A stretch of 64,000 nt of DNA from an uncultured delta proteobacterium (GTDB lineage Bacteria; Myxococcota; Myxococcia; Myxococcales; Anaeromyxobacteraceae), in NCBI GenBank assembly GCA_963828255.1, contig CAWHDZ010000031.1:32001-96000 (forward strand). The letters are read 5' to 3'. The translations under genes were made by a program, and so were the position numbers. Shown in pieces: positions 37,098 to 46,849 of this stretch. Position 1 is the stretch's first letter. Every line of letters starts with the position of its first letter. Below the pieces are notes generated by a model. It did no database searches and was not told the DNA's origin. It saw only the letters and a program-made list of their open reading frames with translations.

Positions 37098-37903
37098 TCA
37101 GCGCCCGAGCGCCTTCGCCAGCGACGCCACGAACCTGCGCACCCGCTCCGCCCGCGCCTTGCGCGCGCCCCCCTCGGCGACGCGCTGGACGATGGCGCTC
37201 CCCACCACGACCCCGTCGGCGATCTTGCCGACCGCCCGGGCCTGCGCCGGCGTTCCCACGCCGAAGCCCACCACCACCGGCACCGGGCTGCGCTTCCGTA
37301 CCGCCTTCACCTTCGCGCCCAGGTCGGCGGGGAGCGAGGTCCGCGCCCCGGTGACGCCGGCCACCGACACGAAGTAGACGAAGCCGGTGGCGGCGTCGCA
37401 GGCGGCCGCCACCCGGGCAGGCGTGGAGGTGGGAGCGAGCAGGAAGACCAGCTTCACGCCCCGTGCAGCGGCGGCGGCGCGAAACGGGCCGGCCTCCTCG
37501 GGCGGAAGGTCGGGCAGGATGAGCGCGTCCACGCCGGAGGCGACGCAACCGTCGAGGAAGCGCTCCTCGCCGTAGGCCAGCACCGGGTTCACGTAGCCCA
37601 TGAGGGCGATGGGGACGGGGGTGCGCTTCCGGACCTCGGCGGCGAGCTTCAAGCAGGAGGCGATGGTGGTGCCGGAGGCCAGCGCCCGCTCCCCCGCCCC
37701 CTGGATGGTCTTGCCGTCGGCGATGGGGTCGGAGAAGGGCATCCCGATCTCGAGGATGTCGGCGCCGCCGGCGGCGCAGGCGAGCGCCATGTCGCGGGAG
37801 GTGGCGAGATCGGGGTCGCCGGCCATGACGTAGGTGACCAGCGCAGCGGTGCCGCGATCCGAGGCGGCGCGGAAGGCGTCGGCGATGCGGTCGGGAGCCG
37901 GGG

Positions 37904-37907
<4 letters not shown>
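37098..37907 (-). CDS. trpA: Tryptophan synthase alpha
   Basis: [40 protein letters not shown]. Confidence 0.97.
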
Positions 37908-39186
<1,279 letters not shown>

Positions 39187-39190
<4 letters not shown>

Positions 39191-39810
39191 GGGATGAGGA
39201 CCTCGCGCACGGCGGTGACGAACCGGAGCATCCGGTCGGCGTCTTTCACTCCGGGTGACGACTCGACGCCGCTGGCCACGTCGACGGCCCAGGGGCGCAC
39301 GGCCCGGACGGCGTCGGCGACGTTCTCCGGTGTGAGGCCACCGGCCAGGATCACCGGCGCCGCCTCGGAGACCCCCTCGGCGAGCGACCAGTCGAAGGGA
39401 AGCCCGGTCCCGCCGTAGCCGCGCGACGGCGTGTCGAGGAGGAAGGCCTGGACCTCGTAGGAGAGGAGCTTCGAGAGGGTCGAGACCTGGTCGACCGGGA
39501 CGGCCTTCACCACGGGCAGGGGCAGCCGGGAGCAGAGCTCGGGCGGCTCGTCGCCGTGCAGCTGGAACACCTGGATGCCGGTCTCGGCGGCGATGGCGCG
39601 CATCTCCCCCTCGGACTGGTTCACGAAGACCCCTACCGGGGTCACGAAGGGCGGCAGGCGGGCGATGATCTGCCGGGCCGCGGCGGCCGTGACGTGGCGC
39701 TTCGACTTGGGCCAGAAGTTGAAGCCCAGTGCGTCGGCGCCGAGCCGGGAGGCGAGGAGCGCGTCCTCGATGCGGGTCACGCCGCAGATCTTGATGCGCA
39801 CGAACCTCAT
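39187..39810 (-). CDS. trpF: Phosphoribosylanthranilate isomerase
   Basis: [31 protein letters not shown]. Confidence 0.96.
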
Positions 39811-40592
39811 CGCGCCGCCGCCATCTCCGCCAGGAGGACGCCCGGGTCGGGCGCGCGGACCAGCGCCTCGCCCACCAGGAAGTTCGCCGCCCCGGCGCGG
39901 CGCAGCCGGGCCACGTCGGCCGCGGTGCGGATGCCGCTCTCGGCGACGCCGCGCACCGCGGCCGGGAGCGCGGCCAGCACGACCTCGCTCGCCGAGAGGT
40001 CCACCCGGAAGGTCCGGAGGTCGCGGTTGTTGACCCCCACGATGCGGGCTCCGGCGCGGACCGCCATCTCCGCCTCCGGGAGGTCGTGGACCTCCACCAG
40101 GGCCGAGAGCCCGAGCGCGGCGCACTCGTCCAGGCGCCGGCGCAGGAGGTCGCCCGGGAGGGCGGAGACGATGAGCAGGGCTGCGTCCGCGCCCCAGGCC
40201 CGGGCCTCGAGGAGCTGGTAGCGGGAGAGCACGAAGTCCTTGCGGAGCAGGGGCACCTGGACCCGCGCCCGGGCGGCGGCCAGGTCGTCGAGGGAGCCCC
40301 CGAAGCCGGGGCCGTCGGTGAGGACCGAGACGGCGGCGGCTCCCGCGGTGGCGTAGCGTGCAGCCTGGGCCGGGGCGTCGAGCCCGGAATCGATGGCGCC
40401 GGCCGAGGGACTGGCCCGCTTCACCTCGGCGATGATGCGGACCGGGCCGCCGGGGGGCGAGAGGGCGTCCTCCAGCCGGCGCGGGCGCGGTGTGTCGAGG
40501 GCCCGGGCCTCCAGCTCCGGCTCGGAGAGCACCGCCCGGCGCTCCTCCACCTCGCGCGCCTTCCTTGCGAGGATCTCGGCCAGGATGGTCAT
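39807..40592 (-). CDS. trpC: Indole-3-glycerol phosphate synthase
   Basis: [28 protein letters not shown]. Confidence 0.96.
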
Positions 40593-41596
40593 GCCCGGCT
40601 CACGGCGGCGAGCCGCTCGAGCTTCTCCGCGGCGGCGCCCCGGTCGATGGAGTCGGCGGCGAGGAGGACCCCGCTGCGCAGGTCGGGCGCAGCCCCCGCG
40701 GCGACCAGGGCGGCCGAGGCGTTGGCCAGCACCGCGTCGCGCGGCGCGCCCTTCGCGCCGGAGAGGACGTCGCGGGTGATGCGGGCGTTCTCCTCGGCGT
40801 CGCCGCCGGCCAGCGCCGCGGCGGGCCAGCGCGGGAGCCCCAGCTCCTCCGGCGTGATCTCGAAGGTCCGGACCGCCCCGTCCTTCACCTCGGCCACCTG
40901 GGTGACCCCGGTGACGGCGATCTCGTCGAGCCCCTCGCCGTGGACCACGAAGGCGTGGACCGAGCCCAGTGCGGCGAGCACCCCGCCGATGACGGGCACC
41001 CAGCGTGGCTCGTAGACCCCCATGACCTGGTGCCGTGCACCGGCCGGGCTGGCCAGCGGCCCGAGCAGGTTGAAGACGGTGCGGATGGCCAGCTCGCGCC
41101 GGATGCCGGCCACCGCCTTGAACGCGGGGTGAAGCCGGGGTGCGAAGAGGAAGCCGATGCCCACCTCGGCGATGCAGCGCTCCACCCGCTCCCGGGGCGC
41201 ATCGACGTCCACGCCCAGCGCGGCGAGCACGTCGGCCGATCCGCACCGGGAGGAGACCGAGCGGTTGCCGTGCTTCGCGACCACCACGCCGGCGCCGGCC
41301 ACGGCGAAGGCCGCGGTGGTGGAGATGTTGAAGGTGTTCTGTCCGTCGCCGCCGGTGCCGCAGGTGTCCACGAAGACCGCCTGATCCACCCGGACCCGCT
41401 CGGCGCGCTGCCGCATCACCTGGGCGGCGCCGGCGATCTCCTCGACCGTCTCCCCCTTGAGCCGCAGCGCGGCCAGGAAGGCGCCCACCTGGGCCGGCGT
41501 GGCGCCGCCGTCGGCGACCTCGCCCATGAGCTCCACCATCTCCGCGCGGGAGAGGTCCTTCCCGGCGACGAGCCGCCCGATGGCCTGCACGATCAC
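40589..41596 (-). CDS. trpD: Anthranilate phosphoribosyltransferase
   Basis: DTCGTGGDG, NISTT, KHGNRSVSS, RTVFNLLGPL. Confidence 0.97.
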   Translation of the reverse strand: MIVQAIGRLVAGKDLSRAEMVELMGEVADGGATPAQVGAFLAALRLKGETVEEIAGAAQVMRQRAERVRVDQAVFVDTCGTGGDGQNTFNISTTAAFAVAGAGVVVAKHGNRSVSSRCGSADVLAALGVDVDAPRERVERCIAEVGIGFLFAPRLHPAFKAVAGIRRELAIRTVFNLLGPLASPAGARHQVMGVYEPRWVPVIGGVLAALGSVHAFVVHGEGLDEIAVTGVTQVAEVKDGAVRTFEITPEELGLPRWPAAALAGGDAEENARITRDVLSGAKGAPRDAVLANASAALVAAGAAPDLRSGVLLAADSIDRGAAAEKLERLAAVSRA

Positions 41597-42186
41597 GGCC
41601 GCCTCCCGGCCCGCACGCGGGCCAGCCAGTTGCCCAGCAGCGCCTTGCCGTGGCCGGTCAGCACCGACTCCGGGTGGAACTGCACGCCCTCCACGTCGAG
41701 CTTGCGGTGGGAGAGTCCCATCACCTCGCCCTCGCGCGTCCAGGAGGTCACCGACAGCACCCGGGGGAGCGAGGAGCGCTCGACCACCAGGGAGTGGTAG
41801 CGCCCGGCCTCGAACGGGGAGGGGATCCCGGAGTAGATCCCGTCGCCGCGGTGGAGCACCGGGCTCGCCTTCCCGTGGACGATGCGCTCGTTGCGGATCA
41901 CCTTGCCGCCGAAGGCCTGCCCGATGGCCTGGTGCCCCAGGCAGACGCCCAGGATGGGCAGCGACCCGGCGAGCTCCCGGATGGCCGTGAGGCTCACGCC
42001 CGCCTCGTCGGGGGTGCAGGGGCCGGGCGAGATGACCAGACCGTGCGGGCGGAGCTTCTCGATCCCGGCCACGTCGATGGCGTCGTTGCGGAAGACGCGC
42101 ACGTCTGCGCCCAGCTCGCCCAGGTACTGGACCAGGTTCCAGGTGAAGGAGTCGTAGTTGTCCACGAGGACGAGGCGCGGCTTCAC
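41593..42186 (-). CDS. trpG: Anthranilate synthase component II (glutamine amidotransferase)
   Basis: DNYDSFT, SPGP, GVCLGHQ, RYHSL, QFHPES. Confidence 0.96.
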   Translation of the reverse strand: MKPRLVLVDNYDSFTWNLVQYLGELGADVRVFRNDAIDVAGIEKLRPHGLVISPGPCTPDEAGVSLTAIRELAGSLPILGVCLGHQAIGQAFGGKVIRNERIVHGKASPVLHRGDGIYSGIPSPFEAGRYHSLVVERSSLPRVLSVTSWTREGEVMGLSHRKLDVEGVQFHPESVLTGHGKALLGNWLARVRAGRRP

Positions 42187-43728
42187 TTTCCGGCCCTCCC
42201 CCGGCGCCGCGTGCGCCGCACCGGCTCGGCGCCCCGCACCGGCGAGGCCTTGCCGTCGAGGTCGCGCGACTCGGCCTGGGCCACCGCCGTGAAGAGGGCG
42301 CGGGCCTTGTTGACCGTCTCCTGGTACTCGGCAGCCGGCTTCGAGTCGTAGACCAGCCCGGCCCCGGCCTGCACCGAGATGCGCCGACCCGACTGCATGA
42401 GCGTGCGGATGGCGATGCACATCTCCATGTCGCCGCCCCGGTCGAAGTAGCCCACCGCGCCGGCGTACGGTCCGCGCCGGGCCGGCTCCAGCTCGTCGAT
42501 GATCTCCATGGCCCGCACCTTGGGCGAGCCGGAGACGGTGCCGGCCGGGAAGCCGGCCCGCAGCACGTCCACCGAGTCGAGCCCGGCGGCGAGCCGCCCC
42601 TTCACCTCGGAGACCAGGTGCATGACGTGCGAGTAGCGCTCCACCGTCTTCAGCTGCGTCACCCGCACCGAGCCGGTGGCGCTCACCCGCCCCACGTCGT
42701 TGCGCCCCAGGTCCACGAGCATGACGTGCTCGGCGTTCTCCTTGGGATCGGCGCGCAGCTCCTCCTCGAGCCGCCGGTCCTCCTCGGGGTCCTTCCCGCG
42801 CTTCCGCGTCCCGGCGATGGGTCGGAGCGTGACCTCGCCGTCCTCGAGCTTGATGAGGGTCTCGGGCGAGCTGCCCACCAGCGCCTGCGTCCCGTTCTGG
42901 AGGTAGAAGAGGTACGGCGACGGGTTCACCCGCCGCAGCGCCCGGTAGACCTCGAAGGGCGGCACCGAGACCTCGGCGTCGAAGCGCTGGGAGAGCACGA
43001 TCTGCTGGCAGTCGCCGGCCTTGACGTACTCCTGGGCGCGCCGAACGGCCCGCTCGAAGGCCTTCCGCTCCACCCGGGGGCGCAGCTCGGCGGCGTGGCG
43101 GTTCGGGGGAGTCCGGCGGTCCCGGAGCGGACGGGAGAGCGCCGCCATGGTCCCGCCGATGCGGGCCAGCGCGGCGTGGTAGAGGGCGCGCGGGTCGTCC
43201 CCCGCCTCGCAGCGGACCTCGGAGATGACGTGCAGCGAGTGGCGCAGGTTGTCGAAGGCGACCACCTGGTCGAAGTCCATGAAGAGGGCGTCGGGGAAGC
43301 CGAGCTCGTCCTCCCGGGCCACCGGGACCCGGGGCTCGAAGAGCTTCACGGCGTCGTAGGAGAGGAAGCCGACGAGGCCGCCCGAGAAGCGGGGGGTGCC
43401 GGGGATGCGAACCGCCTGGTGGCCGGAGAGCTCGCGCCGGATCCAGGCGATGGGGTCGGCCGGTTGCCCGAGCCGCCAGGACATCGAACTCCTGGGGCCG
43501 GCGCCGAGGAAGCTGAAGCGCCCGGAGCGCTCGCCCCCCTCCACCGACTCGAGCAGGAAGGCTTGCCGCTTCCCGCGGGAGAGCTTCAGGAACGCCGAGA
43601 CCGGGGTCTCGGTGTCGGCCTCGATCTCGACGCGCACGGGGATGGCGCGCCCGGGCTTGCACAGGCTCTCGAACGTCGCGAGGTCGGGGGAGGCGCGCAG
43701 GGAGTCAGCGCCAAAGAAACACCGTCAT
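42183..43728 (-). CDS. trpE: Anthranilate synthase component I; full-length product inferred via +1 frameshift at CTT-TGG (join 43728..43714 to 43712..42183; 514 aa)
   Basis: [46 protein letters not shown]. TrpE-like N-terminus ([10 protein letters not shown]...[18 protein letters not shown]) runs upstream of the first in-frame GTG (43637). Gene identity is certain; the start mechanism is inferred. Confidence 0.9.
43705..43728 (-). promoter_or_regulatory. 7-codon Trp-containing ORF MTVFLWR* / candidate +1 frameshift cassette
   Basis: ATG ACG GTG TTT CTT TGG CGC TGA; ATG overlaps the panD stop (ATGA). Confidence 0.7.
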
Positions 43729-44120
43729 GCGACCACCCGCCTGGCCGGGCCGGCGATCTCGACCACGTCCCTGGCGACCACCTTGTTCTCCGCGTCCACC
43801 AGCACCACCTTGGGGACGTGGGTGCGGGCCTCCGCCTCCTCGTACTCGGCGAAGGTGGCGAGGATGACCATGTCGCCGGGGCGGTTCAGGTGGGCCGCGG
43901 CCCCGTTGATGCAGATGACGCCGCTGCCGCGCGCGCCCTTGATGGAGTAGGTCTGGAGCCGCGTCCCGCGGGTGATGTTCCACACGTGGACCGCCTCGAA
44001 CTCCAGGATCCCGGCTGCGTCGAGCAGGTCCTCGTCGATGGAGACCGAGCCCTCGTAGTCGAGGTCTGCCTGGGTCACCGTCGCGCGGTGTATCTTGGAC
44101 TTGAAGAGCGTGCGGCGCAT
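43725..44120 (-). CDS. panD: Aspartate 1-decarboxylase
   Basis: [19 protein letters not shown] (self-cleavage G-S), G.RL.TY, INGAAA. Confidence 0.97.
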
Positions 44121-44152
44121 GATCGGGTTTTCTACCCGGAGGGAGGCTTTCG

Positions 44153-46849
44153 ATCAAGGCATCCGGTGAAAGGGAGGCGGGGCAGGACCCGATCGCGGCC
44201 CGGCGGCTGCGCATCCTGGCCGAGGCCCGCGCGCGCGGAGAGCCCTTCCTGCGCCTCGATCCGGCGCGCCTGCGCTTCCAGCTGGGGACCTCCCACGCCG
44301 ACCTGCGGGTCCCGGTGGCGCTCTCCCCCGACGCCGCCGCGCTGGTCCGAGGGGCCGTGGACCAGCTGGGGCTGCTCCTCAGCATCCAGCACGGCCGCTT
44401 CCTCCCGGCCGACGAGCTCGACCGGCTCTACCTCCGGGAGGACTACGCCTCCCTCCCGGCCGTCGTGGACCGGCTCGCCCCCACCACCGGCGGGCCCGAC
44501 CTCCGGGGCGCCGCCCGGCTGGCCCTGGCGGCCCACCCCGCCCTGCACGGCGGGCTCTTCACCGCCTGGATGGGGCCGGGGGGCCGGGGGCGGTCCCTGA
44601 CCGCGCTCTGGATCGGGGCGCTCCGGGGCGCCGGCGTGGAGATGGAGTCCTCGCCCCGGCAGGAGGAGACCCCCTTCCTGGTCGCGCTGGCCCTCTCCGG
44701 AGCGCTCCAGGCAGCCGCGGCAGGGCTGCGGGACGTCCTTCCCCGGGCCCCCCACGACCGCCACCTGCGAACCGCCGCCCTCACCGCCCTCTGGGTGTCG
44801 GCGCGCACGGCGGTGTCGCGGTTCGCACGGGACGGCGGGCTCCGGGACGACGACCCAATGCTCCTGCGCATCGAGGCCGTGGTGAACCCCGCCGCGCTGG
44901 CCGGTGGCCGCGGCGGCCTCTCCGGTGGGGGCTCCACCCTCTACGGTCCGGAGCTCCTGGCCGGGATTCCCCGGGCCGAGGAGCTGGGGACGGGGCTCAT
45001 CGCCGGGGGGGAGCCGGACGTCGTCATCGGGGCGGTGGCGTCCGCGCTGGCCGAGGACGAGGAGGCCTCCCGCAAGGCCGAGGGGGCGGTGGCGCTCTGG
45101 AGGCTCAGGAGCCTGCTCGTCGCGGCCGGCCTGGCCGCCGAGGAGGCCCGGAAGGGCGCCGCGGCCGCCGACCTCCGGTCCGTGCTGCTCGCACCGGGGG
45201 GGCTCTCGCAGGCCATCTCCGACGAGTCGGGGCGACACGACCTGGCCGGCCGCATCCAGGGGGCGCTCTCCGGCGCGGTGGCCGGGGACGGCGCCGGCGC
45301 GCTCGAGCAGGCGCTGCGCGCCCTGCGGGCCTGGAAGCCGCGCGAGCCGGCCACGGCGGTCGGGCTCCGGCCCGACGAGGCGCGGCAGATCTACGGACTC
45401 GCGGCGGCCGGCCTGCTCGCCGACCAGACGCTGGAGCGGCTCGCCCTGCCGGCCCGCCGGGCGCTGGTCCCGCCGTCCGGGGCCGGCACCCCCGACGCGG
45501 AGTGGGAGGCGGGGCGGCTCTACCGGATCTCGGCCCGCCCGGCCCCCATCCTGGTGGCGGCCCGGGAGCTGCCCATCGCCCACCTGTTCGCCGACGTGAA
45601 GGACTTCACCCGGCGTACGAGCCTGCTGGGGCCGGCGTCCATGGCCGAGTTCCTCCGGCGCGAGTTCTACCTGCCCATCCTGTCCGCCGCCAAGGCCCGC
45701 TTCACCGGCATGGAGCACCTGGCCGACCGGGGCGGCGTCTCGGTGAACAACCTGCTCGGCGACGCCATCTCCCTCTCCGGCGACATCGAGGCGCTGGTGT
45801 CGCTCGCCGCCGAGATCCGGCGTCTGCTCTCCGCCTACGAGGAGCGGCTCACCCGGGAGGTCTCCACCACCGCCGTGGCCGGGAGGGTGACGGCGCTCGA
45901 GGAGCGGTTCCGCGGAGAGATCGCGCGGGCCCAGGCCGCGCGGAGCGAGGCCCGGGCCGCCGCCGAGCGGGCCGCGCCGGGCAGCCCGGAGCGCAGCGAG
46001 TCGCTCCGTCGCGCGGCGCTGCACGCCGCCGCCGCGGCGCGGCTCACCGCCGAGATGGAGCGCGACGTGTCGCGCACCCGCGGGGAGGGGCTGGAGGCCG
46101 GGGTCTTCGTCTCCTTCGGTCCGGCGCCGCTGGTGGTGTCGATCGACGACGAGGCCTTCGGCCACAACCGCGTGGCCATCGCCGAGAAGATCAACGAGTC
46201 GGCCCGTGGGACGGCCCGCGCCTCGCCGGCCCGCGCCCGCTCCGACCAGCTCCTCGCCGCCGCTCGCCTGGCCCAGGGCAACCCCGGGCTGCGCCACGCC
46301 TGGAGCCTCTTCATCGGCCAGCCCCTCACGCTCTCCATCCCGCCCGACGCGGCCGCCGACGTCCTCCGGGCGGCCCGGGCCGGCGACATGACCGCCGCGA
46401 TGCGGGCGGTGGCGAAGCCCGTCCGGCGGGCGCTGGAGGCGGCGGCACGGGCCGAGGACGAGGGGTCGGGCGACGTCTACAACGCCGGCGCCGCGCTCTC
46501 CGAGGAGGCGCTCACGGCCTGGCTCGAGGCGGTGGGGACGAAGCGCACCGTGCGCCGCGTGGAGATCGATCCGGCCGAGATCCCCCAGGAGGTCACGCAG
46601 CGCTGGTGGTTCGGAGTGGGGCCCCAGAGCCTGGTGGTCACCTTCCAGGCCGACGGGCGCCCCGCCGAGATGTTCCGGCACGTGGGGCGGGCCTGGTTCA
46701 AGGGGCTCGGCGAGGTGCCGGTCTGGGAGCTCGCCGCCGACACCGGCGGCCCCGCGGCGCTCTTCCAGGCCATGGGCGGGTCCTGGAAAAACGGGCGGGA
46801 GGGGCAGCCGTCCCGCCCGGAGGCGGTCAGCCCTTCGGCGGGTTCTTGA
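44153..46849 (+). CDS. Large protein with a divergent class III nucleotidyl-cyclase-like domain; probable non-canonical ATC start
   Basis: [22 protein letters not shown] motifs. Frame is open and coding-like from an ATC 6 nt after GGAGG; first canonical start is GTG 44315. Confidence 0.6.

Follow-up and report, generated by a model that had tools for sequence, protein, structure and literature searches.

Full-length TrpE of the uncultured member of the Anaeromyxobacteraceae studied here probably depends on a programmed +1 shift of the ribosome at a CTT-TGG-C site, and comparison of related loci suggests that this shift would become more frequent when charged tRNA-Trp is scarce. The site lies in a short leader on the minus strand of the window (the whole 64,000-nucleotide stretch of DNA that was analysed), between panD and the genes for tryptophan (Trp) synthesis, where we recognized the following features:

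43725..44120, minus strand: panD (TIGR00223, 155.5 bits).
43705..43728, minus strand: zero-frame leader of 7 codons, ending Leu-Trp-Arg-stop, from sequence reading.
43720..43723, minus strand: Shine-Dalgarno (SD)-like GGTG inside the leader, ending 3 nt before CTT; conserved, and in the same place as the GGGGG of the genome's own prfB.
43717..43719, minus strand: predicted E-site codon TTT, variable and mostly A/U-rich in the family alignment.
43710..43716, minus strand: predicted shift site CTT-TGG-C, invariant in the family, with CUU (P site) re-pairing on UUU, the Trp codon in the A site and GGC as first +1 codon.
43705..43707, minus strand: TGA, the zero-frame stop, found near TGG in all family loci.
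43698..43700, minus strand: CTG where the ancestral start of trpE lay, a possible weak or relic start, from NTG conservation in the family.
42183..43712, minus strand: trpE, encoding anthranilate synthase component I, in the +1 frame, from its open frame, profile match and structure homology.
37098..42186, minus strand: trpG-trpD-trpC-trpF-trpB-trpA, each start overlapping the preceding stop by 4 nt (NTGA), from profile matches and junction reading.

At the junction, panD ends with GCA TGA at 43725 (minus strand), and its stop is overlapped by ATG 43728 (ATGA). From this ATG the zero frame reads ATG ACG GTG TTT CTT TGG CGC TGA, with its stop at 43707-43705, and the +1 frame is open down to the trpE stop at 42183; our reading thus agrees with the original prediction of a leader MTVFLWR overlapping the panD stop, with trpE in the +1 frame. 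From panD to trpA the genes join by a 4-nt NTGA overlap at all seven junctions, and ATG 43728 therefore sits where the pattern of the operon expects the trpE start, yet out of frame. The +1 frame contains no ATG, GTG or TTG upstream of GTG 43637 (CTG 43700 and CTG 43664 are present), and it is at GTG 43637 that public gene callers start trpE (484 aa; their protein cluster includes an Anaeromyxobacteraceae-labelled member). As had been claimed, this GTG lies inside TrpE-like sequence: homology to the solved TrpE 5cwa begins ~20 residues upstream of it (query 6-26). The trpE product matches TIGR00564 with 530.7 bits (cut-off 517.7), and translation with a shift after CTT gives the 514 aa predicted earlier. 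The TTT and CTT codons of the leader, described at the outset as uncommon, are so in a crude gene set of this genome, in which CTT accounts for 2.8% of the codons for Leu, and 492 of the 26,453 Phe codons are TTT. Further upstream, an element TTGATC-17 nt-TAGAAA, seen by eye at 44157-44120 (minus strand) and 8 nt ahead of the panD ATG, suggests a near-leaderless panD-trp transcript; a consensus promoter scan found nothing and made no call there. The 844-aa open reading frame at 44315-46849 (minus strand), upstream of panD, has no NCBIfam match and carries motifs that we take to recall a class III nucleotide cyclase.

We considered whether the broken frame could reflect an assembly error, a pseudogene or transcriptional slippage. 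The genome is 99% complete and its contamination of 6.6% speaks for such an error, but contigs from 4/4 sequencing runs span 43700-43730 gap-free and show no listed change (assembled contigs were compared, and the source sample may be among the runs), so that the indel which the original prediction wished to see excluded is absent from them. Moreover, 88/88 relatives are alike and have intact trpE frames, and the only invariant T run, TTT, is too short for known transcriptional slippage. Given the gap-free contigs and the conservation across the family, an assembly error does not account for the junction, and explanations of this kind are highly improbable.

The family search covered 92 genomes, in 88 of which the N-terminus of trpE was present, and all 88 loci were retrieved; these genomes are related, and the counts are hence not independent trials. 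CTT-TGG-C stands in the same frame in 88/88 family trpE loci, which speaks against a chance occurrence, with G at -7, -6 and -4 in all of them, and a zero-frame stop lies 3-24 nt past TGG in every one; the conserved CTT-TGG with a nearby zero-frame stop that the original prediction anticipated has not been lost anywhere inside the family. The leader's start codon overlaps an upstream in-frame stop, 12-27 nt before CTT, in 87/88 loci. When 12 carriers from outside the family are included (100 cassette loci), the A-site codon is TGG in 100/100 and the next base C in 100/100, the zero-frame stop is TGA in 86, TAG in 10 and TAA in 4, and the element at -7..-4 is GGTG in 98, GGGG in one and GGAG in one, the latter two still being SD-like but not start codons. 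Only two of the 100 have a canonical in-frame start upstream of the site, both without a good SD (98/100 have none), and 10/88 family loci have no ATG, GTG or TTG whatsoever ahead of the DTETP motif of TrpE. A frame-blind search for CTTTGG in the 200 nt upstream placed it in the frame needing +1 in 88/88 family loci and in 12/13 outside-family hits. On a FastTree tree, from which all changes were counted, the distance from the site to DTETP changed 17 times, each time by a multiple of three, and in a 58-locus subset the shift-site columns underwent no change vs 9-21 codon changes in six TrpE Leu columns. Since CTT is invariant here despite its rarity genome-wide, the constraint acts on nucleotides. 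Just past the site in the same subset, the third positions of +1 codons tend to be the more variable ones (9 and 15 highest; 12 is the exception). Across these relatives, the layout of the cassette is invariant and the +1 frame runs unbroken from it into trpE.

An explanation without any frameshift is that ribosomes terminate at the leader stop and reinitiate at the NTG codon just past it (CTG 43700, the ancestral trpE start). An NTG occupies the 43700 position in 74/88 family loci (CTG 44, GTG 25, TTG 5) and begins 1 or 4 nt past the leader stop in 68/88; the column has the highest share of G-ending codons (0.91) among 29 Leu/Val columns, and 13 first-base swaps in it preserve NTG. Two relatives (L094 and L097) have an SD and a GTG start at the same position. 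This retention of NTG, together with the G-ending share, makes selection on a second start possible. The original prediction was right that canonical starts are lacking; it under-weighted this ancestral start position. However, there were at least 8 changes between NTG and non-NTG on the tree vs none at the shift site, and NTG is absent in 14/88 family loci and in the majority of carriers outside the family. As a start codon CTG is poor, and an SD of -6 kcal/mol or better precedes the NTG in 0/88 loci (mean -2.2). Restart at the NTG would also raise trpE when Trp is plentiful, which is the wrong sign, and would leave the invariant CTT, the SD-like GGTG and the 3n spacing unexplained; moreover, a ribosome stalled at UGG would presumably cover the NTG codon, which lies 13-16 nt from CTT. 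Reinitiation as the sole route to TrpE is therefore unlikely on these counts, and a weak basal start at NTG 43700 may operate alongside the frameshift.

Outside the family we retrieved 42 loci, the best-scoring plus a spread among the matches listed (150 in one search, with 144 further). Of the 21 with at least 52% identity, 12 carry CTT-TGG-C, one carries GTT-TGG-C (L096) and 8 are without the site, which indicates that the site is dispensable in close out-of-family TrpE; none of the 21 more distant loci has it (0/21). Three loci without the Trp codon (L093, L100, L101) group with carriers on the tree, and in L100 an apparent decayed site with a zero-frame stop nearby can be seen. In several of the panD-free loci (L096, L102, L104, L105, L107-L111) the leaders have 17-19 codons, are mostly Thr/Ser-rich and lie 30-40 nt past a TTGACA box, so that the leader is probably the first open reading frame of the transcript in panD-free carriers. 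In L104, L105 and L107-L111, TrpE is shortened near its N-terminus, up to ~17 residues having been lost from the stretch that links the site to DTETP, with the frame always kept.

These loci also bear on read-through of the panD UGA, whether leaky or by selenocysteine, to give a PanD-TrpE fusion. Such a fusion had to be excluded because trpE continues panD's own frame past the panD TGA, with only TGA-C separating the two; in addition, ARAGORN makes two tRNA-SeC calls in this genome. It fails because the site is kept where no panD match exists, namely in four family loci (L049, L081-L083) and in all 12 outside-family carriers, in several of which a TTGACA box precedes a leader of 18-19 codons. 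Nor did we find, past the panD UGA, the conserved 3' stem-loop that a selenocysteine fusion would show alongside an in-frame UGA in all carriers. Read-through is thus exceedingly improbable.

The short Trp-codon leader ahead of trpE is reminiscent of trpL of E. coli, which gauges Trp-tRNA, and we considered whether stalling at UGG could instead change how the RNA folds and thereby govern either transcription or initiation at GTG 43637. A short Trp leader in this position is a hallmark of attenuators (here with one Trp codon, and two in three loci), and GTG 43637 is the start chosen by gene callers. However, no terminator-like site was found in 43000-44500, and no conserved fold was seen among 61-63 aligned loci (structure conservation index 0-0.06 vs 0-0.11 in controls), so that attenuation fits badly. 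A counterpart of GTG 43637 is missing in many loci, 10/88 having no canonical start before DTETP, and initiation there would lose ~20 homologous residues. Unlike in trpL-type systems, trpE has no separate start with its own SD, there are no terminator and antiterminator hairpins between leader and trpE, and the leader residues would form the N-terminal end of TrpE and not a separate peptide. We regard attenuation as very unlikely.

The proposed frameshift closely resembles that of prfB, which in this genome reads GGGGG-TCG-CTT-TGA-C. Both have an SD-like element ending 3 nt before CTTT (100/100 cassette loci), CUU in the P site followed by U (88/88 family loci), C after the A-site codon and a feedback logic. 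In published prfB logos CTTT likewise lies 3 nt past the SD-like element (PMC12421855, in part), and tRNA-Leu(GAG) mediates the re-pairing of CUU on UUU (PMC13245932, in part); tRNA-Leu(GAG) and one tRNA-Trp are encoded in this genome. Shifting by +1 is known to be stimulated by hungry codons, by a slippery P site and by an SD-like element, as well as by E-site codons rich in A/U, of which those with A/U at positions 2 and 3 are the class reported to shift best (PMC2377451, in part); in the family, the codon ahead of CTT has A/U at both positions in 70/88 loci and is TTT in 54/88. The original prediction likened GGTG to the prfB element, and this stands for its position, 3 nt before CTT, but it under-weighted that the pairing is weaker (-5.7 kcal/mol, family mean -5.8, vs -9.8 for prfB) and that GGTG pairs with the CACC part of the anti-SD, in a register different from that of prfB. 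The trpE site further differs in that UGG takes the place of the stop read by RF2, so that the competitor would be Trp-tRNA rather than RF2, that the zero-frame stop comes 1-8 codons later, and that the site belongs to a biosynthesis gene and is preceded by only 4-19 codons. As in prfB, the +1 open reading frame lacks its own start and the frame relation is conserved, with the caveat of the NTG at the 43700 position in 74/88. Because the A-site codon and the gene differ, the site falls outside the prfB group, although it would work in the same manner; it is likely a Trp-sensing +1 frameshift and a variant of prfB-type recoding.

Other known systems share parts of this design. In the yeast retroelement Ty1 (CUU_AGG_C) a CUU P site is followed by a slow A-site sense codon and then C, so that GGC is the first codon after the shift, as in trpE (PMC5009743, in part); in Ty1, however, a rare tRNA sets a protein ratio in a eukaryotic element, with no SD and no product feedback. 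Hungry-codon frameshifting is likewise driven by scarcity of the A-site aminoacyl-tRNA but is known as an error process, whereas the trpE site is conserved and apparently required. Antizyme shows that a metabolite (polyamine) can feed back through a +1 shift, but it is eukaryotic, shifts at a stop codon and is stimulated by excess of the metabolite, not shortage. Sense-codon substitutions at the RF2 site have reportedly been studied by Sipley and Goldman, by Curran, and by Sanders and Curran. In E. coli, CUU-UGG reportedly gives a measurable shift, which falls with extra tRNA-Trp. Uncharged tRNA is said to damp shifting at the UGG-substituted RF2 site, and such damping could blunt the response to Trp.

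That the shift is real but constitutive, setting a low fixed level of TrpE blind to tryptophan, has in its favour that all evidence for shifting applies to it equally. The post-shift GGC could be selected for +1 decoding, and GGC alone would force TGG; GGC accounts for 52% of Gly codons in this genome, which has two tRNA-Gly(GCC) genes. However, the A-site codon encodes Trp in 100/100 bacterial carriers and in 13/13 of the archaeal ones described below, where TGG may be followed by any base, and by our reasoning other U-starting A-site codons would give CUUU equally well. TrpE catalyses the first committed step of Trp synthesis, and three leaders (L096, L099, L102) have a second Trp codon at most 2 codons upstream. 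Known Trp regulators (TrpR, T-box RNA and TRAP, encoded by mtrB) were not found in this 99% complete genome, in which positive controls were detected. The invariant UGG in a Trp-synthesis gene, the three leaders with a second Trp codon and the fact that these regulators were not found argue for the Trp-sensing reading, and a constitutive shift is decidedly unlikely.

We also looked for the cassette elsewhere. A pattern scan of GTDB genomes, which demands the motif ETP(V/I)(S/T)A and is not a census, gave 42 Myxococcota carriers among the 80 stretches listed (of at least 120); the other 38 were spread over frames 0/1/2 as 8/21/9 with the full layout in none, and no carriers in other bacterial phyla appeared in this listed sample. 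Cultured carriers exist, as the record of Anaeromyxobacter oryzae Red232 (L153) has the cassette. A metagenome pattern scan with shorter spacings gave only chance hits, with TrpE in 0/80 loci examined (of at least 117), and in a control phylum of bacteria, where 90 genomes gave a match, the site occurred in 0/30 loci fetched. Within this genome, two scans for sister cassettes gave only trpE and prfB; the other rows (3/5 in the first scan, 5/6 in the second) look false, one of them presumably being the end of the gene preceding rpoA.

In archaea, we compared 21 trpE loci from 20 genomes of the phylum to which a record titled Thorarchaeota belongs. Of these, 13/21 (vs 0/30 in the bacterial control phylum) open with a zero-frame start and then enter the trpE frame through (C/G)TT-TGG, either as start + 3 codons + (C/G)TT-TGG or with a longer leader; the A-site codon is Trp in 13/13 and the base after TGG is variable. 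The GTT-TGG variant, with a Val codon in the P site, is seen in bacterial L096 and in archaeal L252-L254 and L259-L262. In a quick IQ-TREE tree of 34 TrpE (8 carriers from bacteria, 10 of the 13 from archaea and 16 others; small and compositionally uneven), the bacterial carriers fall within a set of bacterial TrpE that have plain starts, and a single clade of bacterial and archaeal carriers is rejected (p-AU 0.0147), a result pointing to independent origins of the cassette or to its separate transfer. On balance, we lean towards another class of amino-acid sensing by the ribosome, alongside attenuation and T-boxes, in which a hungry-codon +1 shift is placed at the start of the first biosynthetic gene, with separate origins in Myxococcota and archaea on non-sister TrpE lineages.

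Under the proposed frameshift mechanism, ribosomes finishing panD would restart at the overlapping ATG 43728, as the NTGA overlaps at all seven operon junctions suggest. With CUU in the P site and GGUG paired to 16S rRNA, decoding of UGG would compete with re-pairing of tRNA-Leu(GAG) on UUU: ample Trp-tRNA would allow UGG to be read and translation to stop one codon later, and with little Trp-tRNA the ribosome would shift +1, read GGC and make the 514-aa TrpE. Untranslated trpE mRNA would also lower expression of the coupled downstream trp genes, possibly via Rho polarity, which is plausible since Rho is encoded in this genome. A second Rho-like match, below cut-off, lies on contig C15.

The original prediction knew of no trp operon controlled in this manner, and we found no description of frameshift control of trpE in the literature searched, outside which subscription papers largely fall. 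Neither trpE nor anthranilate is mentioned in the first 300,000 of the 449,034 characters of PMC5009743, a 2016 recoding review which, in the part seen, says of starvation-specific functional products that 'no examples are known'; trp is not mentioned in the main text and two supplements of PMC3711429. Regulation of trp is textbook material, and its known mechanisms form a list from which a frameshift gauge is absent in the literature searched. If the proposed mechanism is true, it would provide an example from nature in which starvation frameshifting serves a function, the 14-nt cassette would constitute a minimal Trp-responsive translation switch, and TrpE would be mis-annotated ~30 aa short across the whole family.
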